Source of the DNA: Candidatus Parcubacteria bacterium
GTDB lineage: Bacteria; Patescibacteriota; Minisyncoccia; Phycocordibacterales; UBA918
NCBI GenBank assembly: GCA_021731405.1
Contig: JAKFXN010000001.1
Coordinates: forward strand, 29,857-93,856
Direction: 5' to 3'
DNA length: 64,000 nt
Shown here: piece after piece, positions 14,036 through 27,573 of the stretch
How positions within the stretch are numbered: position 1 is the first letter of the stretch
Layout of the letters: each line of letters begins with the position of its first letter
Translations under genes and position numbers: made by a program
Notes under the pieces: model-generated
Told to the model about the DNA's origin: nothing
Databases searched by the model: none
Seen by the model: only the letters and a program-made list of their open reading frames with translations

Positions 14036-16150
14036 TTAAAGATCCAGTGTCGCCATCTTTGCGTTACTTTGGATAAATGACTTTCGACTCGGAACGTCAG
14101 TACCCATCAAAACATCAAACACTCGATCAGCCAAGACAGCGTCTTCAATATTTACTTGTTTGAGAATTCTGAATTCTGGATTCATAGTTGTTTCTCCTAA
14201 TTCATCAGCATTCATTTCGCCCAGACCTTTGTATCGCTGGATACGCACTTTATTGGTCTTCTTTGCTACTTCTTCAGTCGCTCCTTCTTCTTCCCCTTCT
14301 TCTTCAGCCACATCTTCATTTTCTGATACCTCTACTCCCATACTCTTAAGCACGCTAAATTTTTCTTCATCATTAAAAGCATAGTGGAGTTCTTTTCCTC
14401 GTTGAATCTTATAAAGCGGTGGTTGAGCAATGTAGATAAATCCACCTTCAATCAAAGGCTTAAAATAACGGTAGAAGAGTGTTAGGAGTAGTGTACGAAT
14501 ATGAGCACCGTCGACGTCAGCATCAGTAGCAATAATAATCTTATGGTAACGAAGCTTACTGATATCAAACACATCACCAATCGCGGTACCAAGCGCGATC
14601 ACTACGTTTTTAATCTGCTCTGAAGCAAGCATCTTGTCGATACGAGCTCGTTCAACGTTCAGAATCTTTCCGCGAAGTGCCAGGATGGCCTGTGTTTTTC
14701 GGTCACGACCCATCTTAGCAGAGCCTCCCGCTGAGTCCCCCTCCACAATAAAGAGTTCTGAATCTTCTGCTCGCTTGCTCTGGCAGTCAGCCAGCTTACC
14801 TGGAAGGGACATACCTTCAAGCGCTCCTTTACGAAGTACACTATCTTTAGCTGCTTTGGCTGCTTTACGTGCCTTCACCGCAATCACGACTTTATTGATG
14901 ATAGCTTTGGCATCATCAGGATTTTCTTCAAGGTAATTGTTGAATGCTTCACCAAACACTGATTCAACAGCACCACGAGCCTCTACCGAACCAAGCTTGG
15001 CTTTTGTCTGCCCTTCAAATTGGATTTCAGGCATCTTCACTGAGACCACTGCCGTAATACCTTCAAGTACATCGTCTCCAGTAAAACCAGCGTCTTTATC
15101 TTTAACTGAAAAGAAGTTGTTCTTCTTTGCGTAGTTGTTGAGGGTACGAGTGAGTGCAGTTTTAAAACCAGTTATGTGAGTACCATGTTCTGGGTTGTAG
15201 ATGTTGTTAGCATAAGCACTAATACGCGCTGAGATATCATCGACGTATTGCACCGCCACCTCAACCGACATCACCGCTGCATCATAATCGTTTTTCTCAA
15301 CGTAAAAAATATTCTTATGGACTGGCTTCTGGTAGTGGTTGTTGAAAGCTACCAGAGAACGAAGTCCACCTTCAAAGTAAAAGTGCTGGTGTGGCACCTC
15401 TAGGTGTTCATCACTGAGGTATTGCTTACCTTTAAGACCATCGAGGAATTTCACAACCGCTTTGTCTGTTGAAGCATGAATTGAAGCTTCCTCTCCAGCT
15501 GCCAAACGGGCGTCAATAACTGAAATATGCATCGCTTTCACCAGGTACGCTTGTTGGCGGAGATGGTTTACCACTCGCTTATAGTCGTATGTTGTTTCTG
15601 GAAAGATACTGGCGTCTGCTTGGAAGGTCACAATAGTTCCCTTCAATTTTGAAGCGCCCATTTTCTTTACCTTGTACTTCGGCACACCAATTGCGTACTC
15701 TTGCATATGGTACGCACCGTCGCGGTGAACCTCTACAATTACATGTGATGAAAGAGCGTTCATTACAGACACACCTACACCATGGAGACCGCCAGATACT
15801 TTGTACCCAGATCCTTCACCTCCGAACTTACCGCCAGCATGGAGTACAGTAAGAATAGTCTCAAGCGCTGAGACTCCTGTTTGCTTATGCATGTCGACTG
15901 GAATACCACGACCATTATCGACGACACGAACATAGCCTCCTGGTAGAAGTGACACTTCTACTCGGTCAGCAAAACCACCCATGGCTTCATCGCGTGAGTT
16001 GTCGAACACTTCCCAAATAAGATGGTGAAGTCCATCAGGACCAGTGGTCCCAATATACATTCCCGGCCGCTTTCGTACTGGCTCAAGTCCTTCTAGGACC
16101 GAAATGGACGATGCGTCATAGTTGCTCTTTTTCTCTTTTTTTTCTGCCAT
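14036..16150 (-). CDS. gyrB: DNA gyrase subunit B
   Basis: GHKL ATPase motifs (EVFDNSRDEAMGG, GLHGVGVSVMNALS), TOPRIM (LFIVEGDSAGGSAKMGRDR) and a GyrB C-terminal domain. Confidence 0.93.
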   Translation of the reverse strand: MAEKKEKKSNYDASSISVLEGLEPVRKRPGMYIGTTGPDGLHHLIWEVFDNSRDEAMGGFADRVEVSLLPGGYVRVVDNGRGIPVDMHKQTGVSALETILTVLHAGGKFGGEGSGYKVSGGLHGVGVSVMNALSSHVIVEVHRDGAYHMQEYAIGVPKYKVKKMGASKLKGTIVTFQADASIFPETTYDYKRVVNHLRQQAYLVKAMHISVIDARLAAGEEASIHASTDKAVVKFLDGLKGKQYLSDEHLEVPHQHFYFEGGLRSLVAFNNHYQKPVHKNIFYVEKNDYDAAVMSVEVAVQYVDDISARISAYANNIYNPEHGTHITGFKTALTRTLNNYAKKNNFFSVKDKDAGFTGDDVLEGITAVVSVKMPEIQFEGQTKAKLGSVEARGAVESVFGEAFNNYLEENPDDAKAIINKVVIAVKARKAAKAAKDSVLRKGALEGMSLPGKLADCQSKRAEDSELFIVEGDSAGGSAKMGRDRKTQAILALRGKILNVERARIDKMLASEQIKNVVIALGTAIGDVFDISKLRYHKIIIATDADVDGAHIRTLLLTLFYRYFKPLIEGGFIYIAQPPLYKIQRGKELHYAFNDEEKFSVLKSMGVEVSENEDVAEEEGEEEGATEEVAKKTNKVRIQRYKGLGEMNADELGETTMNPEFRILKQVNIEDAVLADRVFDVLMGTDVPSRKSFIQSNAKMATLDL

Positions 16151-16229
16151 GCCGAATATTACTAACCCTTAAAAAATATACCCAAATTATAGCAGATTTT
16201 AGTCCCACTGTCTCCCCAACTTCCCAGAT

Positions 16230-16256
16230 AAAAACCGCCATTTCTGGCGGTTTTTT
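16230..16256. terminator. Intrinsic terminator (AAAAACCGCCATTTCTGGCGGTTTTTT)
   Basis: Hairpin with flanking A- and T-runs, downstream of the 16273..16674 gene and upstream of gyrB. Confidence 0.75.
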
Positions 16257-16272
16257 GACCACAAAGTAGTCC

Positions 16273-16674
16273 TCATGTACTCAGAAATGAGATGAGCGGT
16301 AGAGTGTTCGTGACAGTGGCACAAAAGGCCACCCACCCAACAACATCAGGGATTTTTCTTCTATCAATAAACCAGAGGGCAGATGCTTGCAAAGCGCCGA
16401 GCCAGGTGCCGATGACAAAAGCCATCATCAGGAAGAGAAAGCGTCCGCTCGAAACAATTGGACCAGAGCCGTAAAAAAGCAGTGAGGTTACCACAGCTGT
16501 TACCCACACGACCAAGAGCATGCTTCCTAGAGACCTGTCCTTTTTTACGTAGGAAAACAGTGCTGCTAAGGCCAGTCCGCCGAGGACACCATAACCACTT
16601 GGTGCAATGTCCTTCCACTCAAACACGTAATACAACAGCGCAAGTGCCACATTGTCCAGCGCAAAGAAACGCAT
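16273..16674 (-). CDS. Small integral membrane protein (4 predicted TM helices), function unknown
   Basis: 133 aa, strongly hydrophobic, with an ATG start and a terminator downstream. Confidence 0.5.
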   Translation of the reverse strand: MRFFALDNVALALLYYVFEWKDIAPSGYGVLGGLALAALFSYVKKDRSLGSMLLVVWVTAVVTSLLFYGSGPIVSSGRFLFLMMAFVIGTWLGALQASALWFIDRRKIPDVVGWVAFCATVTNTLPLISFLST

Positions 16675-16756
16675 GTCAGCCTCCGAATAATAGGTGTTAA
16701 AAAAAGAGCGACGACTTCACAGCCTACACTACACAAAAAACACCTTCTCGTAAAGA

Positions 16757-18658
16757 CTAGCGAGCTTCCCAGCCTTGGTTTGCAACCGTTTTATAGAGGT
16801 CATCCATGTGGATTTGTACCTCGCTATCAGTCAGGGTCTTTTCACTTGATTGGAACACTAGACGAAACGCGAGTGACATTTTGCCATCTTTACCAAAGGT
16901 ATCAACATGAGTAACACGTACGCACAGTGGACCGGCCTGGGCTTTCAAAAGTGCTGCTACGCTTTCGGCAGTAACTGCCTCTGGCACCCACATGGCAATA
17001 TCTCGACTAACTGCCGGATAGAGTGAAAATCCTTGGTAGGTAGTCTTTGGTGAAAGAGACGTTTTTTCATATGCAGTAACTTTTGGAAGATGTGTGAGCA
17101 TCTCATCAAGCGAAAATTCAACTATTCCATCTTCTTTGCTTATGAGAGTTATAGAAACTCCTAGGACAGCGGCTAGCGCAGCAAGGGCTTCATCAACAAG
17201 TGGGTCATCGGCCTTGGCTTTGTATGCTGTGCCTGTCTGCACTGCGAAAGCAACCCTAAACTCCTCACTCTCTGTTCCAAACACCGTTCCAATTTCAAAA
17301 ATTTTAACGGCTGGTAGACCAAGCAAATCACGGTGCGGGATGTTGAGAGTACGCGCTTCGCGAAGATTCTCTACTAGTGAGCTACGTAAGTAGCCCTTGT
17401 CGGTCGCAAGTGCGTTCTCAAGCTTTACCACATCCTTAGCTCTAAAACTGCTGGTATATACCTCAGAGAAACCAAGTGTCATTAGGGTCTCGCGAATTTT
17501 TTCAGAATAGTAGTGACGGACGTTTATTTCTGCAACAGCGCCCACTGTTGGAGGGACTGAGACAATATGTCCAAGTCCGTAGATGCGACCAATTTCTTCA
17601 ACAATATCTTCAGCGATAACAAGGTCATCACGCTCAAACGGTGGCGTAACCGTAATACTCTCTCCTGCAGTGGTATACGTATAAGCGAATCGGTTAAGAA
17701 TATCTTCAACATCACTCATTGAAAGAGTTACGCCAAGCAGTGAATTAATTTCAGCCAAGCGAACGGTTACCGGTAGACGTTCTACACTTCCGTCACCAAC
17801 GGCGGTCACGACTTCAGTCGTACCACCTGCTACCTCAAAAATGAGTTCCACCACCCGAGTAAGGGCTATTGGCGCGACAGCGCGGCAAATGCCATTCTCG
17901 TAGCGCTTAGAGGCATCAGTTTGAAGCTTTAGTGACTTGGCAGTCTTTCGAACCGCAAAGCGATCAAAGTGAGCCGATTCAATAATAATGTTTGAGGTAG
18001 CAGCATCAACCGCCGCTACTTTCCCTCCCTTAATGCCCGCGATACCAATAGCTACATCGTTTGTGCCGTCTACGATAAGAGCGTCTGTTGGTTGTAGAGA
18101 GTACTCTTCGCCCGTGAGTGTAGTAATTTTTTCTTCCGCTTTAGCATCACGCACAGTGATGTTGTGACCTCCTAGTTTATCAGCATCAAAAGCGTGGAGT
18201 GGTTGGCCAAGCTCAAACATGACGTAGTTAGTAGCGTCTACTATGTTATTGATAGAACGTTGACCGACAGCAGCTAGTCTTTCCTTAAGCCAGTCTGGGG
18301 AAGCTCCTACCTTAACACCGGTGATTAGTGCTGCACTATAAAAATCACAAGTGGCACTCGTAAGTTCAATCTTAATACCTGAATCCTTACTCAAGGTAAC
18401 AGGATTCAAAAACGGATCAGCCTTTAAGGTATTCTTTGTAATGACCGCAATCTCTTTGGCCATTCCCCGGTGGGACATTAGCCAAGCTGATTTATCAGGC
18501 AGCACCTTCACATCAAGTACTGTGTCCCCTCCTACCGCTATCAGTTCTTCAATCTCAGCCGAGTGGAATGTTATCAAATCACCCAACTCCGCCACAGGCG
18601 GCATTGGCTTTTCTAGCAGTGACCCTAACCAGTTATAAGAAAATTTCATAAGTTTCAA
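16757..18658 (-). CDS. pheT: Phenylalanine--tRNA ligase beta subunit (short form lacking the N-terminal OB tRNA-binding domain)
   Basis: MKFSYNWL... start, B3/B4 region (IVDATNYVMFELGQPLHAFD), B5 and a C-terminal FDX-ACB-like domain. Confidence 0.9.
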   Translation of the reverse strand: MKLMKFSYNWLGSLLEKPMPPVAELGDLITFHSAEIEELIAVGGDTVLDVKVLPDKSAWLMSHRGMAKEIAVITKNTLKADPFLNPVTLSKDSGIKIELTSATCDFYSAALITGVKVGASPDWLKERLAAVGQRSINNIVDATNYVMFELGQPLHAFDADKLGGHNITVRDAKAEEKITTLTGEEYSLQPTDALIVDGTNDVAIGIAGIKGGKVAAVDAATSNIIIESAHFDRFAVRKTAKSLKLQTDASKRYENGICRAVAPIALTRVVELIFEVAGGTTEVVTAVGDGSVERLPVTVRLAEINSLLGVTLSMSDVEDILNRFAYTYTTAGESITVTPPFERDDLVIAEDIVEEIGRIYGLGHIVSVPPTVGAVAEINVRHYYSEKIRETLMTLGFSEVYTSSFRAKDVVKLENALATDKGYLRSSLVENLREARTLNIPHRDLLGLPAVKIFEIGTVFGTESEEFRVAFAVQTGTAYKAKADDPLVDEALAALAAVLGVSITLISKEDGIVEFSLDEMLTHLPKVTAYEKTSLSPKTTYQGFSLYPAVSRDIAMWVPEAVTAESVAALLKAQAGPLCVRVTHVDTFGKDGKMSLAFRLVFQSSEKTLTDSEVQIHMDDLYKTVANQGWEAR

Positions 18659-19375
18659 CTAAAATTGATTGACGAAGCGGAGATCGCCGTTATACATCAG
18701 ACGAATATCGTCAATTCCATACTTCAGCACCGCGAGTCTATCCATTCCCATACCAAAGGCAAAGCCTTGGTATTTTTCCGGATCGATACCGGAAGCACGC
18801 AGTACGTTTGGGTGCACCATCCCAGCTCCCATGATTTCAATCCAGCGACCAGAGAGCTTGTTGTCAGGAGTTGGCGCAATCATCATATCAACCTCAACTC
18901 CTGGCTCCACAAACGGAAAGAAGCTGGGTCTGAAACGCACCTGTACTTCCCCACCAAAAAACCGTGAGAAGAAATATTCAAGTACTCCCTTCATATGACC
19001 AAGTGACACATCCTCGTCAATCATTAAACCTTCAATTTGGAAGAACTGAGCTTCATGAGTAGCGTCTGTCGCTTCGTTTCGAAACACCTTCCCCGGACAA
19101 ATCATCTTGATGGGCGGTGTATGACTTTGCATATGCCGAACTTGTACTGGTGAAGTGTGCGTGCGCATTACCACGTCCCCCGTACCTGCTAGATAAAAAG
19201 TATCTTGCATGTCGCGCGAAGGATGATCTTTAGGCACATTAAGTGCATCAAAGTTAAAGGCTACCAGCTCACGTTCTGGTCCTTCGGCAAAGGTAAAACC
19301 AATCTCAGCAAAGATACTGTTTATCTCAGCGATTACCTGCGAGAGTGGGTGCTTATGTCCTACTGGTGTGTTCAT
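18659..19375 (-). CDS. pheS: Phenylalanine--tRNA ligase alpha subunit (catalytic core only)
   Basis: Class II motifs HPSRDMQDTFY, FRNEATDATHEAQFFQIEG and GFAFGMGMDRLAVLKYGIDDIR. Confidence 0.9.
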   Translation of the reverse strand: MNTPVGHKHPLSQVIAEINSIFAEIGFTFAEGPERELVAFNFDALNVPKDHPSRDMQDTFYLAGTGDVVMRTHTSPVQVRHMQSHTPPIKMICPGKVFRNEATDATHEAQFFQIEGLMIDEDVSLGHMKGVLEYFFSRFFGGEVQVRFRPSFFPFVEPGVEVDMMIAPTPDNKLSGRWIEIMGAGMVHPNVLRASGIDPEKYQGFAFGMGMDRLAVLKYGIDDIRLMYNGDLRFVNQF

Positions 19376-19395
19376 ACAAAAATCCTACCACGTGT

Positions 19396-20526
19396 TTATA
19401 AAACTGGTAGTGCGGTTATGATTTCTAATAACGAAGTGCCTTGCTCTACAAAAATAGAACCTCCGTACACAAGCATTGTAATATCTGTTCCTGGATATAA
19501 AAGCTGGGCGTTTTGCCAAGCACGATCATCAATCTCAACAACGTAGATACCCCTTTCAAGGTGCATCAAAACTAAATCTTCACTATTTGGGAAAAAGGTA
19601 AAATCAATCACAGATTGACCGAGTGCATCCATTTCAATGCTGGTTCGACACTCACGGGTATTGTTAGAAAGTTCGTTTAGGGTATTCTCAAAAAACATCT
19701 CTCCTTCCTCTACAAGCAGTGTCTCCTCTAGGTCAAGCGCTGCTTCAATTTCTACCTGACTCGTACAGAAGTAATGCGGTATCTGGCGACCTACACCAAG
19801 CGCTCCAGCATACACTTTGTCGCCCGACTTATAGAGTGCCACGTTATTACTAATCACCGTGGTAGTAGCGAGCACTTCTTCTTTGGTCGGTGTACTCGTA
19901 GAAAATGAAAAGGCTTCTTCAGGAGCTCCCTTTAGCATTTTTGTGGTAGATGCTTTTTCTAAAAACAAATCCTTAAGAAGCGTATATTCAGAACTCACTC
20001 TATAGGTGCTCGTTGCTACTGATGTTGTGGCTAGGTACGGAATAGTGCTTGAAGCAGAAAGTAAAAGTGCCGGTGTTGATGTGCCGCCAGTAAATACCGC
20101 TTCCCCTTCAATGGTCTCATACGGAGTAATTGGACGCACTTGTGGTACAAGCGGCATATTAAAAGATTCAGCCTCGGTTACGATATGTGGATACACAGTA
20201 AGATTTTTTACCCACGTATGAAGACCCGGTGATTGCACGTGCACGCGGTGCATATTTGGAACGAGCCCTTGAATGTATGAGGCATTTCTAAATACCCGAG
20301 CATTAGTAACTTCAACCTCATTCACAAAAATAGTGCTGTCTGGTGCCTCCGCCGCAATATAAAGTCCACCTGTAGCAGTGATAGATGGCGCACCTGAGAA
20401 GAAGTCGTAGCGATAGCCCGTAGCGTAAAACATGAAGGCTGGCAGACTAAAAAGAAATGCCAAAAGGAGCAGGGTGAAGATAATTTTGCGGTGCCAATAG
20501 GCGAGCGGTTTGACTTGAGGTTTCAT
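19396..20526 (-). CDS. Membrane-anchored extracytoplasmic protein of unknown function (possible partner of the adjacent glycosyltransferase)
   Basis: 376 aa with a single N-terminal TM (IIFTLLLLAFLFSLPAFMFY). No recognisable motif. Confidence 0.5.
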   Translation of the reverse strand: MKPQVKPLAYWHRKIIFTLLLLAFLFSLPAFMFYATGYRYDFFSGAPSITATGGLYIAAEAPDSTIFVNEVEVTNARVFRNASYIQGLVPNMHRVHVQSPGLHTWVKNLTVYPHIVTEAESFNMPLVPQVRPITPYETIEGEAVFTGGTSTPALLLSASSTIPYLATTSVATSTYRVSSEYTLLKDLFLEKASTTKMLKGAPEEAFSFSTSTPTKEEVLATTTVISNNVALYKSGDKVYAGALGVGRQIPHYFCTSQVEIEAALDLEETLLVEEGEMFFENTLNELSNNTRECRTSIEMDALGQSVIDFTFFPNSEDLVLMHLERGIYVVEIDDRAWQNAQLLYPGTDITMLVYGGSIFVEQGTSLLEIITALPVL

Positions 20527-20543
20527 AAAAATAGCCTACCACA

Positions 20544-22100
20544 TTAGCGAGTCTTTGGGGTTACCCAGAAGCCCATGTACTTACCGAACATCAGTCGTGT
20601 CTGAGCATCAAGGCCTGGAATAGCACTAAATACAATCATTGTTGCTGGAACCATAATCCACTGGAGTGCCATCACTAAGTATCTAAACCGACTCGCGGTA
20701 TGAGGTCGAGGTGGAATAAGCGAAAGTGAAATGACAGAAGAGATAACGAGTCCAAACATCGCAAGGATAAGGAGGTCGCGAACCACAATTGGCAGATTGT
20801 ACGAAAGTACCGTCTGGTGAAATTCTTGTCCTCCCAAAAAAATTGGTGCCCAACCGAGAATAAAAAGCATGATTGGGTTTGTAACGAGAGACCAATACCC
20901 TTCGGCTTGCTGAAGCGCTACGTTAACTCGTTGCCTGAGGGGAATATTTTTGTTTTGGGTGAAGTGATACAAGATGTAACAAAGATTTTCTACCCCATAT
21001 GTCCAACGTCGGTGTTGCTTATAGATTTGACCAATCGTCTGCCAGAGATGTGGGGCAGCATTGGCGTCCATTGAAACTGGGTACGAGAGTGGGATGACAC
21101 TGTACTTACCATCGTTCGCAACCAGGAGGTTCCAAAAAATACGCGAATCCTCACTCACCATGTTGCTTTGCCAATACCCTACTTCGTAGAGCGCTTGAAA
21201 GCTCACTGAGTGTGAAGAAAATGTCGCCATTCGTTCTGGACGCTCTTGTTGCACCATTTCCCAAAATGTACTGCTCATCGCTACCACGCGCGAAATAGCC
21301 GGAGCCTCCCAGATGTTGTTATTAAAAATAGGGACTGGCTGGAAAGAACTTTTAAGTGGGTTTTCAGCTGTCATGAAGTGCCAGACCAAGCAGTTGAAAT
21401 AGTCTGGATAGAGTACGGTATCAATATCAAAAATAGACACAATGGTGTCTGTGTATGAAAGTTGATTTTTATCGAGCACCTCCTTTCGGACTTGTTCAGC
21501 TGCGTACGAAGCATTTGATCCTTTCCCAGCCATTTCTCCTGGAACATTAGCTGGGTGGACAGTCAAAAGAAAATGCCCAAAACGAGAACCGTATTTTGCC
21601 TGCATTTCTGCTCCAATTTCATGAGCATGATTTTCCGCCCTCGCTTCCCCAGCGAGCACAATAATAATCTTCTTAGGATCATACTTCACTTGAGACAGCG
21701 CTTTGAGACTCGCTTCAATGACCGCTACTGGTTCTTTATAAAACGGAAGGATAACTACGTGGTGTAAATGTCCATATGAAAAACGTGCCACCATGTCTGA
21801 CCAATCAAGAGACATGTGATGGCGTAGACGTCGCCAGTTATAACGTAAGTGGTATGAGAGAAAAGCAGTCTTCAAAACCCAATACAAAGCAAACGCAATA
21901 ACGAAGTAAGCGGCAATAAACGGCGCGTAGACAGAAAGGAGGACTACTCCAATAAGTGTTGACCACGAAGCAAGGCCAGGGAGGACTTCAAGCACTCTAT
22001 AAAAAAAGCGCCGTTTCCCTTCTAGATTGGTTGCTCGGCCCACATGAAAGTCACTTCTACGGGCATATGGCAACAAATGATTTTGCTCTGGAGCGCTCAT
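20544..22100 (-). CDS. Processive family-2 glycosyltransferase (cellulose/chitin/hyaluronan-synthase-like, membrane-embedded)
   Basis: Multiple TM helices, DIDTV (DxD), SED and the QHRRW (QxxRW) motif typical of processive GT2 synthases. The start was set at the internal ATG (22100); the upstream part of the track ORF has a TTG start. Confidence 0.78.
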   Translation of the reverse strand: MSAPEQNHLLPYARRSDFHVGRATNLEGKRRFFYRVLEVLPGLASWSTLIGVVLLSVYAPFIAAYFVIAFALYWVLKTAFLSYHLRYNWRRLRHHMSLDWSDMVARFSYGHLHHVVILPFYKEPVAVIEASLKALSQVKYDPKKIIIVLAGEARAENHAHEIGAEMQAKYGSRFGHFLLTVHPANVPGEMAGKGSNASYAAEQVRKEVLDKNQLSYTDTIVSIFDIDTVLYPDYFNCLVWHFMTAENPLKSSFQPVPIFNNNIWEAPAISRVVAMSSTFWEMVQQERPERMATFSSHSVSFQALYEVGYWQSNMVSEDSRIFWNLLVANDGKYSVIPLSYPVSMDANAAPHLWQTIGQIYKQHRRWTYGVENLCYILYHFTQNKNIPLRQRVNVALQQAEGYWSLVTNPIMLFILGWAPIFLGGQEFHQTVLSYNLPIVVRDLLILAMFGLVISSVISLSLIPPRPHTASRFRYLVMALQWIMVPATMIVFSAIPGLDAQTRLMFGKYMGFWVTPKTR

Positions 22101-22193
22101 AACAGAACACTGAGTATATACCAAAAAGGGGTTTAAATAAAGGGCTGGAAATGGAGTTTGCAAAGGGCCACCCTAGGGAAATAGTGAGCTTTC

Positions 22194-22329
22194 GCCATCT
22201 GTATTATCTGCGACACAACCCATGGACATCTGTATGCAAAGCATACAGCATGGCCTCACTCGGGTATAGAAAAAGGCCAAGCCGAAATTAAAGCCATCTG
22301 TATCTTCGATACAGCATGGCCTCACTCGG
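22194..22329. repeat. Tandem hairpin repeat units, each beginning (G)CCATCTGTAT and ending CATGGCCTCACTCGG; the hairpin arms mimic the T-arm/acceptor 3' end of the nearby tRNA-Thr
   Basis: Two units share the hairpin CTGTAT(G)C...G(C)ATACAG plus CATGGCCTCACTCGG (22221-22263 and 22293-22329). On the minus strand the motif reads ACAGATGGC, the acceptor 3' strand. Confidence 0.6.
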
Positions 22330-22369
22330 TAATAAGTACGCTAAGGCCACAGCCTTAGCTAGATTAAAG

Positions 22370-22412
22370 AAAAAAGCCCAAAAGAAAGCTAGCTTTCTTT
22401 TGGGCTTTTTTC
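22370..22412. terminator. Bidirectional intrinsic terminator (AAAAAAGCCCAAAAGAAAGCTAGCTTTCTTTTGGGCTTTTTTC)
   Basis: Perfect 17-bp palindrome with an A-run and a T-run. Confidence 0.8.
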
Positions 22413-22458
22413 TTTAATCTTCTCTCGCTATCGCTCGCGACTTACTACCCTCGTGTCG

Positions 22459-22576
22459 GAGCCATCTGTCAGATTTGAACTGAGTATCCAATGAGCGAAC
22501 GAGATATAAAATTCATTTTATATCTCTGAGCGAAGCAGGATACACGGCGTAGCGTACGACCCACGGTTTACAAAAC
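22459..22576 (-). pseudogene. Partial tRNA-Thr copy: anticodon-loop-to-3'-end segment interrupted by a ~72-nt structured insertion, with no 5' half
   Basis: Minus-strand read: GTTTTGTAAACCGTGGGTCGT [72-nt insert with two hairpins] TCAGTTCAAATCTGACAGATGGCTC. Outside the insert it is identical to the intact tRNA 200 bp away. Confidence 0.6.
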
Positions 22577-22634
22577 TTTTAAACAGTCCCCCAGACTGTT
22601 TAAACTCTCCCACCTGAGCATCTCCTTCCATATA

Positions 22635-22666
22635 AAAACCAGGTGGTATCACCACCTGGTTTTTTC
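22635..22666. terminator. Intrinsic terminator hairpin (AAAAACCAGGTGGTATCACCACCTGGTTTTTT) immediately 3' of tRNA-Thr
   Basis: 11-bp palindrome flanked by an A-run and a T-run. Confidence 0.75.
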
Positions 22667-22668
22667 TG

Positions 22669-22741
22669 AGCCATCTGTCAGATTTGAACTGACGACCCAC
22701 GGTTTACAAAACCGTTGCTCTACCAACTGAGCTAAGATGGC
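22669..22741 (-). tRNA. tRNA-Thr (anticodon UGU), 73 nt, CCA not encoded, discriminator U
   Basis: Folded by hand into a full cloverleaf: acceptor GCCATCT/AGATGGC, D arm GCTC-AGTTGGTA-GAGC, anticodon arm ACGGT-TTTGTAA-ACCGT, variable loop GGGTC and T arm GTCAG-TTCAAAT-CTGAC. Confidence 0.92.
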
Positions 22742-22811
22742 AATACTTCCCTCCTTCTACGTTTTCACGTGCCTGCTATTATGCCCGTTTTGAAAAAATT
22801 CGCAACTCTTC

Positions 22812-23258
22812 TTATCCGCGCTCCAACTTCTTTTGGAGAAGCTTCTTTTTTTGAGTTTCGGTAAGGGCGGTAGATGCTTTGTGTTCTGCCACCTGCTCAA
22901 AATGTCCTTGGTTTTGTTTAATTGAACGCTTCTCAACCTTTAGTGTCCGTGCCCGATCTCGGTTACGCATAAAAATGGCTTCAAGGTAATCGTACGCCTT
23001 CACGAGCCCAGTAAGTAACACCTTGAGCACCTTATGGATTCCATAGTACCAAGACAACTTGATAATATGTCTTCCTAGATACAGAAGCTTAGAAGAAACT
23101 GCATTGGTAACAGAGACTACAATTCTATCAAACCAAGCTCTCCCTTTAGCAAGAAAGACTCGGCTGCCCTTACGCTCTTCGTAACGCACAAAAAGTGCGT
23201 ACGTCAGAAACAACACCAAACTCAGTACAAACAATTGTCCGACACTGAGCATAGACAT
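22812..23258 (-). CDS. Hypothetical membrane protein (N-terminal TM plus a basic coiled-coil tail) downstream of tsf
   Basis: 148 aa: TM LFVLSLVLFLTYALFV, then a K/R-rich helical region. Confidence 0.5.
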   Translation of the reverse strand: MSMLSVGQLFVLSLVLFLTYALFVRYEERKGSRVFLAKGRAWFDRIVVSVTNAVSSKLLYLGRHIIKLSWYYGIHKVLKVLLTGLVKAYDYLEAIFMRNRDRARTLKVEKRSIKQNQGHFEQVAEHKASTALTETQKKKLLQKKLERG

Positions 23259-23843
23259 CTATTTTACTGACAGTCGTGAAATTTGAGCGATTGATACGTT
23301 CTCACCAAACTTCTGTACTGCACCTGAAATCATTTCCCCAATAGTAGTATCTGGGTTTTTGATAAATGGTTGCTCCATAAGGATTTGCTCTTTGAAATAT
23401 GAAGCCATCTTTCCTTCAAGAATCTTTGCCCGCATTTCAGCTGGCTTGTCGCCAAGCTCAGTGGTAAATACTTCTTCAGCTTTCTTGAGTGTCTCAGCTG
23501 GTACCTGATCTTTTGAAACGAAAGTTGGGTTGGTAGCCGCTACTTGCATAGCCACTTCGCGCGCCAAAGCTACGAACTCTTGGTTCTTAGATACAAAGTC
23601 AGTCTCACACGCGAGAAGCGCAAAAGCTGCCACCTCGTTGGTGTTGTGTACGTACGCACCAATCGCGCCAGCACCAAGCTCACGATCTGACTTTTTGTCA
23701 GCCGCTTCACTACGCTTCTTCTTAAGAATAATGACTGCCTTCTCCATATCACCCTCTGCTTCTTCAAGGGCACGCTTACATTGCATGACTGAGATACCAG
23801 TCTTGTCACGAAGTTCCTTTAATTGAGCTGAGGTAATTTCCAT
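23259..23843 (-). CDS. tsf: Elongation factor Ts
   Basis: N-terminal UBA-like EF-Ts signature (LKELRDKTGISVMQCKRALEEAEGDMEKA) and a dimerisation core. Confidence 0.9.
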   Translation of the reverse strand: MEITSAQLKELRDKTGISVMQCKRALEEAEGDMEKAVIILKKKRSEAADKKSDRELGAGAIGAYVHNTNEVAAFALLACETDFVSKNQEFVALAREVAMQVAATNPTFVSKDQVPAETLKKAEEVFTTELGDKPAEMRAKILEGKMASYFKEQILMEQPFIKNPDTTIGEMISGAVQKFGENVSIAQISRLSVK

Positions 23844-23920
23844 AGTTTTGATATTAGATTTATTATAGACAGAACAACTTCTTACTCTGACGAACAGGTG
23901 TTCATCAGAAAATACTATAC

Positions 23921-24694
23921 TTATTGTGGTCGAGCTACAGGAGCAGTTGTCCGTGGACGAACTTCTGTTCGTGGTGCTACTGTCTTTGGTACAAAGGCAG
24001 CCTTCCCTTCTGCAATAGCAGATGTGAGTTCTTCAAGCACCAACTTAACACTTCCTTGTAGAGCATCGTTTACAAGCACTGGGTACGTTACAGAAGCAAC
24101 GTTACAGTCAGAGCTCATAATACCGATTACTGGCACACCCATGTGCTGTGCCTCCTTGATTGCAATTGCATCATGACGTGGGTCAACAACCACCATGAAG
24201 TCTGGAGTCTTAGTAACTTTACTGATACCGAAGAAATTGTAGTTAAGCTTTGTGAGGTCACGAGAAAGGAGGAGGCGTTCCTTCTTTGTGTACTTTCGCT
24301 CGAGCTCTCCTGATTCTTGTTCACGAACCAACTCTTCCATGCGATTAATACGCTTCTTGATTTCTGGAAGGTTTGTAATCATTCCTCCAATCCAACGATT
24401 AACTACGTATGGCATTTCAACCTTGAGGGCAGCAGCTTTTACACTGTCTACCACTTCCGTCTTTGTTCCTACAAAGAGAATGGTCTTGCCATTCATTGCA
24501 GCTTCTTTCAAAACTGTCTTTGCGTCGTTAATAAGTTCAGTGGTTTGTTCTAGGTTGAAAATATCATTACCCTCTTTTGTTCCAAAAAGAAACGGGGTAA
24601 CGCTTGGATGACGACGACTCTTTTTGAAGCCGAAGTGTGCACCTACGCCAAAAAGACGTTCGATGAGTGATTGGTTGTTAGTTTGTGTTGACAT
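23921..24694 (-). CDS. rpsB: 30S ribosomal protein S2
   Basis: LFGVGAHFGFKKSRRHPSVTPFLFGTKEGNDIFNLEQT... is the typical S2. The start was set at the internal ATG (24694) to avoid overlapping prfA. Confidence 0.92.
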   Translation of the reverse strand: MSTQTNNQSLIERLFGVGAHFGFKKSRRHPSVTPFLFGTKEGNDIFNLEQTTELINDAKTVLKEAAMNGKTILFVGTKTEVVDSVKAAALKVEMPYVVNRWIGGMITNLPEIKKRINRMEELVREQESGELERKYTKKERLLLSRDLTKLNYNFFGISKVTKTPDFMVVVDPRHDAIAIKEAQHMGVPVIGIMSSDCNVASVTYPVLVNDALQGSVKLVLEELTSAIAEGKAAFVPKTVAPRTEVRPRTTAPVARPQ

Positions 24695-24758
24695 AATTAA
24701 TACTAAGCAAAAAAGCGCACTGCGCTTAAGCCTCGAGAGCTTATCATATATGAAAAAC

Positions 24759-25742
24759 CTACGCAACTGCCTCGTCGCTGCCGGTCGCTACATTTTTAAG
24801 AGCGTCAATTACTGGCTCGAGCTGTCCTCCCATGATTCCCTCTATATTATGCCAAGAGACCTTAATGCGGTGATCAGTAATACGGTTTTGTGGAAAGTTG
24901 TACGTCCGAATCTTTTCTGAGCGATCACCAGTACCAATCTGGTTTTTTCGTACTGAAGCGTGTTTTTTGGCTTCCTCTTCGTCGTGTGCAGCCTCAAGCT
25001 TAGCCACCAAGATACTCATTGCTTTTTCACGGTTTTTGAGTTGAGAACGCTCTGTCTGACTACGGACTTCAATTCCCGTTGGTTTATGGACCAAACGCAC
25101 AGCTGTTTCTACTTTGTTTACGTTTTGACCACCAGCTCCTCCCGAACGTGAAAACTCCATTTCGATATCAGAGAGACTGATCTCAATAGTTGGTTTCTTG
25201 CGGAGCGGCAAGATAGCCACAGAAGCAGTTGAGGTATGGATACGGCCAGCCTTTTCTGTTACTGGGATGCGCTGTACGCGGTGCACACCTGTTTCGTAGC
25301 GTAAGTCGTCATATACTTTTGAGCTCAAAATCTCAAACACCGCTTCTTTATATCCACCCGAAGCGCTACGTGACTCACTTTCAGTGGCATATTGCCACCC
25401 CATGACAGTAGCGTACTGAAGATACATCTGCGCTAACTCCTCAGCAAAAAGTGCAGCTTCATCTCCACCTGCTCCGGCTCGCACTTCAAGTACCACTCCG
25501 TATGGCTTTTCATCATCCACCTTAGCGAGTGTTAAGATGCGCTGCATTTCCTCATAGAGCGCTGATTGCTGAGCAGTGAGAGTCGCCACTTCTTCCGCTG
25601 CCATATCAGCCATTTCTGGATCCTCAGTAGCCATCTCTTCTGCCGCTATAATTTTTTTGGTGAAGTCATCAAACTGCCCCGCCAAAAATTGCGTTTTATG
25701 ATTATCTCTAAAAGATTGTAGTTCTTCTTCGTTGTATTCCAT
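24759..25742 (-). CDS. prfA: Peptide chain release factor 1
   Basis: GGQ motif ([11 protein letters not shown]). The anticodon-mimic region [18 protein letters not shown] (PxT type) identifies RF1 rather than RF2 (SPF). Confidence 0.85.
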
Positions 25743-25772
25743 AAATATTAAATATAGTGTAGCGCAGAAACG

Positions 25773-25812
25773 AAAAGACCGCCTTCACCCAAAGGGTGAA
25801 GGCGGTCTTTTG
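25773..25812 (-). terminator. Intrinsic terminator downstream of rpmE (AAAAGACCGCCTTCACCC-aaa-GGGTGAAGGCGGTCTTTTGGG)
   Basis: Long GC-rich hairpin plus a T-run. Confidence 0.8.
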
Positions 25813-25814
25813 GG

Positions 25815-26084
25815 TTAACCCTTCTTCTTGCGAGCACCTGCTTGAGAAGCTCGAGCCTTGAATCGCTCTACGCGTCCGGCAGTGTCCATAACCTTCTCCT
25901 GTCCAGTATAGAAAGGATGTGAAGCACTTGATACGTCCACTGACGCAGTTGGGTACTCTACACCATCAGTCCATTTGTCGGTCGCTGTCGTTTCGATGGT
26001 TGAACCAACGAGAAAACGCTCGCCACTTGAGTTGTCCTTGAAGATTACCAGTCTATAATTTTTTGGGTGAATATCTGCTTTCAT
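25815..26084 (-). CDS. rpmE: 50S ribosomal protein L31 (non-zinc type)
   Basis: MKADIHPKNYRLVIFKDNSSGERFLVGS... is the L31 family, with no CxxC pair. Confidence 0.88.
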   Translation of the reverse strand: MKADIHPKNYRLVIFKDNSSGERFLVGSTIETTATDKWTDGVEYPTASVDVSSASHPFYTGQEKVMDTAGRVERFKARASQAGARKKKG

Positions 26085-26124
26085 ATGTGGGCAACACTAT
26101 AACAAATATCTGTATTTTCGCAAC

Positions 26125-27486
26125 CTATCCGCCAAGGACCTTAATATCTCCGTCTAGTCGCGCCTTACGATTCATCACCTGATCGCCATAAAAGGCGTTA
26201 GCGGGGTTACTAGCTCCTCCCCAACCAGCGTAGTAGCGCAAAGCTGCTCTACGGTCGTTTGCGTACGTACCGTCAGCACCGTTGTCTCGGAGCAAGAGTG
26301 CTGTAGCCAAAAAGGCATCTTGATTATTAAATGGGTTGGCTGGTAAGCCGCTACCATTAATACGACGGATAGCATCGTCCGCCTGGCTGTATGTCCAGCC
26401 GCTGCCGTTATTTATGATACCGCCATAAATGGCCCAAGTGGACGGAATAAACTGCGAAGGACCCATCGCCCCTCCCCAACCGTACCGTTCGCCGTTTGAA
26501 ACAATTGGACAAGAGACCTGCTTTGAGCGAGCATCAAAACCTAGGATAGTAGCAATCGCTACGAAGACAGGAGCGTCTCTGTCTGGATGCATTACCTCTT
26601 TCCCACCACGCATGTCGTTGTATACACAACTACCTAAGTTTGAACCGAGATTAGTCTCTTGTTCCAAGATAGCTAAGATAAGCCCTGCTTGTACTCCAGT
26701 TTGTCTTGAGGCATATTTTGCGAGCTCAACCGCAGTTGGAAAGGCAATTCCCCCGCCACCACCCAGAAGCTGGAAGAGGGCATTTCGAAGTTCAGCAGCG
26801 GTCTTTTGTTGGGATTCGAGTAGCTGTTGGTACGCGCGTTCTTCTCCTTTTGTTACTGCCAAAATTTGCTCTTTCTCACGCTCTTTTTTTTCAATTTCTT
26901 TTTTTTGAAGCTCTTGGATAGTTTTCATCTCCGCTTCTGTCTCTTGCTTGGTAGCCAATTGGTCTTTTTGAGAGATAGTGTCACTTTGAATAGCATGGAG
27001 TGTGACCAGTGATTCGTTGAGTGATTCCTTAAGCGAGTTGAAGGTAGCGACGTCAGTAAAAAATTCTGAGAAACTCTGTTTACTGAGCATTACTTCCACT
27101 AGTGAGTAGTCGGTCATGAGTGACGACTTGCGTACCAGGTCTGCTAAAGCCTCACGCTGCTTCTTAAGTTTTTCTTCCAAAATTGAGAGGACTACCTCTT
27201 TTTCTCCAATCTGATCAGAAAGCTGCATAATAGCTAGCGAGCGTGCTTGAATACCAAGTTGCGCCTGTTTGATTTCACCTTCAATGAGAGATACATCCCG
27301 TTCTAGAGATTTGCGCTCAAGTTGCTTGTCTTCAACCAGACGACTCTGAGTAAGCATTTGACGTTCGACGTTTTGGAGCTCTGTCTCAAGCCGAGTCCGC
27401 CGTTCAGCTTCTGTTTCCGCTCGTACTTCAAATACCGGTCCAAAAACCGAGAGCAAGAAAAGGGCACTGACAAAAACGTTTTTCAT
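26125..27486 (-). CDS. Secreted coiled-coil protein with a C-terminal lytic-transglycosylase (MltB/Slt-like) domain
   Basis: Signal peptide, about 230 aa of heptad-rich coiled coil, then GAMGPSQFIPSTW (MltB-type motif) and Gly/Asn-rich LT-domain features. Start set at the MKNVFV... ATG at 27486. Confidence 0.7.
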   Translation of the reverse strand: MKNVFVSALFLLSVFGPVFEVRAETEAERRTRLETELQNVERQMLTQSRLVEDKQLERKSLERDVSLIEGEIKQAQLGIQARSLAIMQLSDQIGEKEVVLSILEEKLKKQREALADLVRKSSLMTDYSLVEVMLSKQSFSEFFTDVATFNSLKESLNESLVTLHAIQSDTISQKDQLATKQETEAEMKTIQELQKKEIEKKEREKEQILAVTKGEERAYQQLLESQQKTAAELRNALFQLLGGGGGIAFPTAVELAKYASRQTGVQAGLILAILEQETNLGSNLGSCVYNDMRGGKEVMHPDRDAPVFVAIATILGFDARSKQVSCPIVSNGERYGWGGAMGPSQFIPSTWAIYGGIINNGSGWTYSQADDAIRRINGSGLPANPFNNQDAFLATALLLRDNGADGTYANDRRAALRYYAGWGGASNPANAFYGDQVMNRKARLDGDIKVLGG

Positions 27487-27573
27487 TCCAAACAGTATAC
27501 CAAATTTTTTGGGATACAAAGAGCCACCTGACAATTGTCAGGTGGCTCTTTGTATCGGCTTTCAATTTTAGAG

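Follow-up and report, generated by a model that had tools for sequence, protein, structure and literature searches.

A window of 64,000 nucleotides (nt) from a Candidatus Parcubacteria bacterium (GenBank assembly GCA_021731405.1, contig JAKFXN010000001.1) was analyzed around its tRNA-Thr(UGU) gene, which is followed by a series of structured units derived from pieces of the tRNA itself. Throughout, the window denotes this whole 64-kilobase (kb) stretch. The minus strand is the tRNA sense strand, and the units are described in the order in which they are read along it (Table 1). The Rfam tRNA model scores the gene at 72.4 bits (22669–22741), and the CCA end is not encoded. Downstream, a region of 480 bp can be divided into three parts: a tRNA-like unit, here called M3; a trailer of approximately 115 nt, which is clamped by the long-range helix S1 around the hairpins P and hp2; and three minihelices (MH1 to MH3) of approximately 12 base pairs (bp) and of acceptor/T type, each of which ends in a copy of the last 11–12 nt of the tRNA.

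Table 1. Features of the tRNA-Thr(UGU) region in window coordinates, in the order of reading along the minus strand
Feature	Positions	Strand	Remarks
Promoter-like site	22778–22805	minus	TTGCGA-N16-CATAAT, 5' of tRNA-Thr
tRNA-Thr(UGU), intact	22668–22741	minus	ARAGORN; sole tRNA called in 64 kb
Terminator-like hairpin T1	22634–22664	minus	14-bp perfect stem and T run
D-loop-like start of M3	22605–22619	minus	GCTCAGGTGGGAGAG; 5' acceptor strand absent here
Hairpin H1	22578–22604	minus	11–12 bp stem, GGG triloop; between M3 D-arm and anticodon loop
Exact 21-nt copy of tRNA positions 30–50	22556–22576	minus	= 22692–22712
72-nt structured insert	22484–22555	minus	between the 21-nt and 25-nt copies
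Exact 25-nt copy of tRNA positions 50–74	22459–22483	minus	= 22668–22692
S1 5' strand	22441–22454	minus	closes the trailer domain, long-range
Hairpin P	22361–22420	minus	30-bp perfect palindrome, A run and T run; inside the S1 domain
Hairpin hp2	22340–22359	minus	8-bp stem
S1 3' strand	22324–22336	minus	overlaps the CCGAGTGAG leader (22321–22329) of MH1
MH1	22290–22329	minus	leader CCGAGTGAG, 5 bp, bulged G, 7 bp; covariance model 60.9 bits
MH2	22222–22263	minus	GCTTTGC loop type; 3' strand ATACAGATGTC; covariance model 57.1 bits
MH3, decayed	22194–22232	minus	3' strand ATACAGATGGC intact at 22194–22204; 5' strand degenerate, no leader

A preliminary description of this DNA had reported an intact tRNA-Thr(UGU) on the minus strand, an exact anticodon-loop-to-3'-end copy split by 72 nt, and two further hairpin units mimicking the tRNA 3' end. 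These observations hold: ARAGORN and Rfam agree on the gene, the split copy resolves into 21-nt and 25-nt matches for which shuffled sequences give a chance expectation of 0.00, and the hairpin units carry CCGAGTGAGGCCATGCTGTAT, repeated exactly at 22309–22329 and 22243–22263 and followed by ATACAGATGGC or ATACAGATGTC. The segment GCTCAGGTGGGAGAG, H1, T1, P, hp2, and S1 are parts that it had not recorded.

The 21-nt copy spans the anticodon loop, the 3' strand of the anticodon stem, and the variable loop, and the 25-nt copy spans the T-arm, the 3' acceptor strand, the discriminator, and one further base. Given that the D-loop-like GCTCAGGTGGGAGAG and H1 lie upstream of the 21-nt copy, this second unit, M3, is a nearly whole tRNA-like paralogue and not just a 3' fragment. 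The insert between the two copies has an outer stem (GTATCC/GGATAC), internal loops GCTTCGCTCA and GTTCGCTCA, and an inner hairpin with a perfect 12-bp stem at 22501–22526. This layout, with CTCG-type internal loops, resembles the variable-region domain found in the M3 units of related genomes. There is little sequence similarity between the insert and that domain of approximately 70 nt, and their homology is uncertain; the closest M3 homologues, at loci L006 and L134, have no such insert. With its 5' acceptor strand absent and its T-stem interrupted by 72 nt, the M3 of the window does not form a cloverleaf with a paired acceptor stem, as a functional tRNA would, and neither ARAGORN nor Rfam called it as a tRNA.

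Related loci were collected through a protein scan with EF-Ts, taking one genome per species. The scan yielded 80 loci with 69–93% identity, all labelled as Kaiserbacteria, Paceibacteria, or Patescibacteria metagenome-assembled genomes. In approximately 73 of them, tRNA-Thr(UGU) is found at the corresponding position within an unchanged gene order, rpsB-tsf-orf148-tRNA-GT2-orf376-pheS, where orf148 and orf376 are open reading frames (ORFs) of 148 and 376 amino acids (aa) and GT2 is a family-2 glycosyltransferase. The distance between tRNA and GT2 ranges from 106 to 1741 nt in these loci, and the longest gaps are filled by repeat arrays or, in L001, by one ordinary 272-aa gene. Within this space the number of modules varies from locus to locus, with 0–3 leader modules, 0–2 M3 units, and 0–8 minihelices.

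In relatives, M3 is a tRNA-like paralogue in which H1 is inserted at position 25/26 and region 30–74 of the parent tRNA follows. It was found downstream of the tRNA in at least 11 loci using nhmmer and in several more by eye. An exact match of 45–46 nt between M3 and the tRNA of the same genome occurs in L006, L059, and L063, whose tRNAs differ from one another. The variable-region domain of approximately 70 nt interrupts the copy in L028, L029, L035, L043, L052, and L076, and its inner hairpin covaries. The 5' acceptor strand, which the window unit lacks, is kept in L028, L029, and L052, and the D-loop variant of the window recurs in L047, L134, and L036. Alignment of H1 from 28 homologues showed that 12 of 12 pairs had changed on both sides, with 89% of cells paired; the GGG loop is invariant except for one GGT, and tandem G.A pairs are conserved in nine sequences. 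Thus, the features specific to M3, namely H1, the D-loop variant TAGYGAAG..GGAGAG, and the variable-region domain, are conserved and covary across distant genomes.

An alternative reading of H1 as a true anticodon arm (GGG) was considered, as two programs place it there. Infernal aligned H1 of the L052 unit as the anticodon arm, at 21.7 bits against a cut-off of 29, and in a search of this unit against Rfam only the tRNA model matched, below threshold. At L135:2777–2873, ARAGORN called M3 as a 97-nt tRNA-Pro(GGG) with a long variable arm, again taking H1 as the anticodon arm; the acceptor stem of this call is weak, with two mismatches and one wobble pair. The reading was rejected as the principal one because positions 33/37 covary as a base pair (UA in 20 sequences, CG in 6, and UG in 2) and the stem is 12 bp long.

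Many relatives also carry modules on the 5' side of the tRNA. These leader modules, 1–3 tandem units of 112–115 nt, are located between the promoter and the tRNA (for example, L001:5097–5212, L008:5102–5329, and L006:3420–3648). Each contains the tRNA leader and positions 1–24, H1, the start of the anticodon loop, and an antisense copy of tRNA positions ~21–39. The antisense piece, of 10–16 nt, stands head-to-head with the anticodon-loop sequence and matches the anticodon-stem type of its own genome. The window has no leader module, and its architecture is that of L006 and L134 minus these units. The promoter-like block TTGCGA...GGCATAAT is also visible in L001, L003, L006, L008, and L132; relatives have this site upstream of their first leader module. 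T1 found no BLAST match in the 80 related loci and was not seen in the relatives examined.

The trailer was delineated using RNAalifold and direct pair counts as a three-way domain of approximately 115 nt, in which S1 encloses P and hp2. S1 is paired in 96.3% of cells, with 7 of 11 pairs changed on both sides; the corresponding counts are 12 of the inner 13 pairs of P and 5 of 6 pairs of hp2. Homologues of P, differing in sequence, are present in at least 35 loci, and P itself resembles a bidirectional terminator. The single-stranded motif CCGAGYGAG is conserved among loci, and the distance between the tRNA's 3' end (or that of M3) and the end of the first minihelix is held to 167–186 nt in 22 loci. 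The window sequence folds into this structure at −92.8 kcal/mol (z = −10.3). At one position of S1, 13 sequences have a G.U pair, 6 have G-C, and 3 have A-U. Since G.U would be C.A on the other strand, this position indicates pairing in RNA that is transcribed in the direction of the tRNA, and it is not easily made by local palindrome correction.

Sequence conservation of the trailer can be compared with that of neighbouring coding sequence. The 171 nt from the trailer to MH1 are 81–85% identical between the window and L001–L004, whereas tsf is 77–83% identical overall and only 43–57% identical at third codon positions. Identity in the trailer is far above this near-saturated synonymous level, which argues that the noncoding stretch is conserved by purifying selection. 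The modules are conserved at the tRNA-Thr locus in dozens of genomes and maintained by selection.

Of the minihelices, the window has two strong hairpin units and one decayed unit, each with the 3' end ACAGATGGC, and MH1 and MH2 share the layout CCGAGTGAG + GCCATGCTGTAT...ATACAGATGGC/ATGTC. The 3' strand of MH1, ATACAGATGGC, is a copy of tRNA positions 64–72. Copies of the tRNA 3' end measure 25 nt in M3, 11 nt in MH1, 10/11 nt in MH2, and 11 nt in MH3. The minihelix consists of 5 bp, one bulged base, and 7 bp, approximately 12 bp in all, which is the length of the stacked acceptor/T helix of a tRNA. It is paired in 92.6% of cells, with 6 of 12 pairs changed on both sides. Two loop types, CGAAG/CCGCAG and GCTTTGC, occur together in many genomes, and the first unit usually begins 117–125 nt past the tRNA.

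A covariance model built on 16 units was used to search 666 kb, comprising the window and the 80 loci. It returned 57 matches, all of them downstream of tRNA-Thr; five were reverse-strand echoes, and all primary matches lay on the tRNA strand. No minihelix was found outside the tRNA-Thr locus in this search space, nor any other copy of the modules in the 64-kb window. The family is thus locus-specific and tRNA-linked, and within the sequence searched it is not a dispersed repeat of the miniature inverted-repeat transposable element type. In L030 (5299–6033), eight units follow one another with a 99-nt period, and seven are identical, which points to a very recent amplification.

The acceptor-like pairs of the minihelix track the tRNA of their own genome: GCCATCT is accompanied by GCCAT/ATGGC, GCCACCT by GCCAC/GTGGC, and GCCGCCT by GCCGC/GCGGC. 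In 28 of 32 loci, the base of the 3' strand that corresponds to tRNA position 68 is the one found in the tRNA of the same genome. The tRNAs of L002 and L034 have a T5.G68 wobble pair, and there the minihelix has G in its 3' strand and C in its 5' strand. As the G is copied and a C is placed opposite it, the 3' strand is the copy and the 5' strand adapts to it. In this region, covariation of the helices is seen at the RNA level and on the sense strand of the tRNA, and the 3' copies track the tRNA of their genome.

In light of these data, the origin of the tRNA copies can be considered. The preliminary description had interpreted them as scars of attachment (att) sites, left at an integration hotspot by repeated imprecise excisions, with a tRNA-derived small repeat family as its second suggestion. 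It had also noted that no integrase or element is present, which was confirmed, as neither an integrase nor another mobility gene is encoded at 14036–27534, where the Pfam matches of the ORFs all belong to housekeeping families. The second suggestion is essentially right, with the qualification that the family is linked to this one tRNA locus and not dispersed. Serial integration by a tyrosine integrase at the 3' half of tRNA-Thr, by contrast, is very improbable. Positions 30–74 do correspond to the identity block of many tRNA-targeting integrases, as is generally held and as described for Islander, and a displaced, exact 3' copy is present here and in several other genomes. Moreover, the head-to-head junction between tRNA[..38] and reverse-complement tRNA[21–38] upstream of the tRNA in relatives could come from recombination at the anticodon loop. 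However, neither integrase nor foreign island DNA was found in the window or in the ~73 syntenic loci, whose gaps of at most 1.74 kb are too short to hold an island. The arrangement is not sporadic either, but lies at the orthologous position across genomes whose EF-Ts is 69–93% identical. The preliminary description had itself named, as an outcome that would refute integration, relatives with this arrangement and without any element, and this is the outcome observed in the related genomes. The parts that do not derive from the tRNA are conserved and covarying, and integration would leave unexplained why relatives have 5'-half copies on the upstream side of the tRNA, why complementary strands make hairpins of the 3' copies, and why the long-range helix covaries.

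Searches beyond the related genomes gave no support to integration either. Three scans of viral contigs, with an exact 42-mer, a degenerate 29-mer of the T-arm/acceptor region, and the minihelix pattern, revealed no partial copy resembling a phage attachment site (attP). The degenerate T-arm/acceptor pattern GTCGTCAGTTCRAATCTGACAGRTGGCTC matched 45 IMG/VR contigs (L081–L125), and in every case the match was a phage tRNA-Thr gene. These genes are complete except for 2 of 45 that are cut by the contig end, belong to unrelated phages, and are mostly UGU with a few AGU; a tRNA-Thr 3' half of this type is thus widespread among phage-encoded tRNAs. A single metagenome scan, which required the exact 25-mer, gave 12 contigs, 8 of them Kaiserbacteria-like and two with double matches 110–112 nt apart, and none of the 12 contained an occupied site.

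The orientation of the locus provides further information on which gene the region belongs to. The tRNA is inverted relative to the flanking genes in 12 of the ~73 loci (L017, L032, L039, L053, L054, L058, L064, L066, L068, L070, L074, and L078), and in those with minihelix matches (L039 and L054) the minihelices are still downstream of the tRNA and on its strand. We therefore rejected the possibility that the region is the 5' untranslated region of GT2, as the minihelices remain with the inverted tRNA and an extra gene intervenes in L001. This extra ORF, of 272 aa (L001:5915–6733), lies between the minihelix and GT2 of L001, the closest relative, and is absent from the window; its motif WYVDPLDGTKNF presumably marks it as a member of the inositol-monophosphatase family. 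Its presence indicates that gene content beside the repeat region is not fixed.

We favor, with a probability of roughly 0.6, the explanation that this is a lineage-wide, tRNA-linked structured RNA region that arose from duplicated pieces of tRNA-Thr, is co-transcribed with the tRNA, and is shaped by local duplication and gene conversion. Units would arise and change in number through unequal crossing-over at the tRNA segments that they share, a process expected to give the varying counts of leader modules, M3 units, and minihelices seen among loci. The exact identity of the copies to their own tRNA indicates gene conversion. The region would be transcribed together with the tRNA or by read-through, and RNase P, RNase Z, and the CCA-adding enzyme may recognize the tRNA-like ends, a suggestion offered with low confidence. 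Much as in tRNA punctuation, cleavage at these ends would free the clamped trailer and the minihelices, which would become small stable RNAs.

Several observations weigh against this explanation. T1 stands between the intact tRNA and all other modules, and the terminator-like P precedes the 3' strand of S1 and the minihelices. The window M3, lacking a 5' acceptor strand and with a disrupted T-stem, would not by itself be a substrate for RNase Z or RNase P, and enzyme recognition does not require the minihelices to track tRNA pairs 4:69 and 5:68. Mismatches in the minihelix comprise 10 G.U against 17 A.C; as G.U is not in excess, the minihelix alone gives no strand-specific RNA signal. The question of the transcribed strand, on which the minihelix mismatches are uninformative, is answered by the fixed G.U of S1. 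In L062, L079, and L080, the tRNA–GT2 gap of 106–170 nt has room for no module, so the region is dispensable in several relatives. Finally, template switching during replication can create and maintain perfect palindromes without selection and can mimic compensatory change (PMC8794818). This tempers the covariation of the local hairpins, but neither that of S1 nor the conservation of sequence.

The last points lead to a neutral interpretation, in which tandem fragments of tRNA pseudogenes, gene conversion, and palindromes kept by template switching form debris with no RNA function. The rapid turnover of unit number, the identity of the copies to their own tRNA, the palindromic nature of all modules (several of them perfect and loopless), the lack of a G.U excess in the minihelix, and the lineages without the region are all compatible with it. 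Nevertheless, we consider it unlikely, given that the trailer, which is not tRNA-derived, is conserved at 81–85% next to near-saturated synonymous sites and that S1 spans approximately 115 nt with a fixed sense-strand G.U. The tandem G.A pairs and invariant GGG loop of H1 and the conserved single-stranded CCGAGYGAG also argue against debris, as does the fact that these genomes are small and streamlined, with otherwise short intergenic spacers.

A second tRNA gene in one related genome shows a comparable arrangement. At L009:7200–7859 (minus strand), sequences repeating the gene's own 3' end likewise lie downstream of tRNA-Tyr(GUA): 15-nt copies in direct orientation at +165 and +562, and copies in reverse complement, up to 22 nt long, at +46, +80, +227, and +368. 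The region contains an hp2-like hairpin and a CGAG-rich stretch that resembles the tRNA-Thr trailer, and in the predicted fold the 3' half of the tRNA pairs with an inverted copy (z = −10.4). Copies of the own 3' end may thus be general for tRNA genes of this lineage.

The tRNA-Tyr locus bears on two further explanations. The first is a selfish, non-autonomous element that inserts at tRNA 3' ends, with the last 11–25 nt as the target-site duplication and the strands of S1 as terminal inverted repeats. Direct copies of the tRNA 3' end bound each unit, the strands of S1 sit close to the two trailer ends, where terminal inverted repeats would be expected, L030 has an array of identical units, and the analogous direct and inverted copies, hp2-like hairpin, and CGAG-rich stretch at tRNA-Tyr would fit such an element. 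Its chance of being correct is slim, however, as no dispersed copy was found in the 666 kb or the window, and there is no transposase. The position is orthologous, vertically inherited, and under purifying selection, and the fixed G.U in S1 points to RNA pairing and not to identical protein-binding ends.

The second is a folding switch acting in cis, or a decoy. The 5' strand of the minihelix would be an anti-acceptor strand with two alternative partners, namely the 3' strand of the real tRNA (or M3) and the downstream copy, and it would control tRNA-Thr maturation or mimic a tRNA end for an enzyme or toxin. RNAalifold prefers a helix, stacked on S1, between the 5' strand of MH1 and the upstream 3' strand of the tRNA, and the L009 tRNA-Tyr locus folds alike, an anti-3'-end segment there preceding a 3'-end copy. 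This explanation would also account directly for the tracking of the own acceptor sequence on both strands. However, covariation does not separate the two pairings because their partners are copies of each other, and by the time the anti-acceptor strand is transcribed the tRNA has long since folded. We regard this explanation as rather improbable.

Among known systems, the closest analogue of the structured RNA region favored here is the group of tRNA-linked repeats (TLRs) of Escherichia coli, which includes rtT after tyrT-tyrV and RrA, RrB, and RrF after the rrn operons; the likeness is one of organization only, and homology of sequence would not be expected between phyla. In TLRs, 18–19 bp match the 3' terminus of the gene upstream, which encodes a tRNA or rRNA; apart from RrA, RrB, and RrF, which are small RNAs produced by processing, their function is not known (PMC8144298). 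As in E. coli, the units described here lie directly downstream of a gene for tRNA (or rRNA) in the same orientation, number one to several per locus, and end in an exact copy of the upstream gene's 3' end, 18–19 bp in E. coli and 11–25 nt here. The 3' ends are identical to that of the upstream tRNA, and all primary matches lie downstream on its strand, with terminator-like hairpins intervening. Unlike in TLRs, the 3' copy is paired here with a complement into a 12-bp minihelix, and the host phylum differs. A covarying three-way trailer, a tRNA-like paralogue with extra arms, and the 5'-half copies in the leaders of relatives are not described for the E. coli repeats. We know of no Hfq or CsrA partners in bacteria of the candidate phyla radiation (CPR).

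Other systems share individual features with the locus. Attachment sites of the Islander type likewise have, on the 3' side of an intact gene, a direct repeat that runs from the anticodon loop or the T-loop as far as the 3' end. However, the present locus has no integrase or island DNA, its copies lie 67–200 nt apart, dozens of species keep the arrangement at the orthologous position, and the adjoining sequence that is not tRNA-derived is conserved and structured. The bacterial 3' external transcribed spacer (3'ETS) of leuZ and the eukaryotic precursors of tRNA-small nucleolar RNA (snoRNA) and MALAT1-mascRNA similarly place a structured RNA beside a tRNA or tRNA-like element, where recognition by RNase P and RNase Z would set the ends. 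In contrast to 3'ETS and punctuation RNAs, processing at the present locus is presumed, and the tRNA-like elements are repeated minihelices that copy the neighbouring tRNA. M3 resembles tandem tRNA pseudogenes in fitting the tRNA model below threshold (21.7 against 29 bits in L052), but unlike in decaying pseudogenes, its variant features are conserved and covary across distant genomes.

The remaining surroundings of the locus are unremarkable. On the 5' side of tRNA-Thr lie a prfA-like gene, rpsB, tsf, and orf148, and on the 3' side GT2, the 376-aa ORF, pheS, pheT, and gyrB, an ordinary housekeeping set of a small-genome bacterium. The product of orf148 has no family match and resembles a small membrane protein; no link between it and the RNA region was found. 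Phenylalanyl-tRNA synthetase (PheRS) alpha has 238 aa and EF-Ts 194 aa (18659–19375 and 23259–23843, respectively), both below the usual bacterial sizes, which fits a reduced CPR genome. A search of 22100–22820 against Rfam 15 at a relaxed threshold yielded, besides the tRNA, only spurious below-threshold matches of microRNA and leader models to the palindrome.

We tentatively suggest, as a possibility with odds clearly against it, that these loci represent an undescribed class in Kaiserbacteria, and perhaps in other CPR bacteria, of tRNA-attached RNAs in which a clamped trailer is joined to minihelices of anti-acceptor strand and acceptor copy matched to the own tRNA, acting in cis as a folding or processing switch or as mimics of tRNA ends. 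The copies beside tRNA-Tyr in L009 suggest that such RNAs may extend to several tRNA genes of the lineage. If its expression and processing are confirmed, the region is a candidate for a new class of structured RNA.

The presence of partial tRNA copies beside a tRNA gene does not in itself show that integration once took place, and island finders based on displaced tRNA fragments would give false positives at such loci. If the favored explanation is true, repeats ending in the 3' terminus of the upstream tRNA, for nearly fifty years an unexplained curiosity of E. coli, also occur in the CPR, where those of this lineage would be elaborate, clearly selected, and structured at the RNA level. The region would open the TLR question to comparative study, with dozens of genomes to draw on, helices that show compensatory changes, and copies that co-vary with the parent tRNA, and it would provide concrete small-RNA candidates in organisms about whose RNA biology almost nothing is known.

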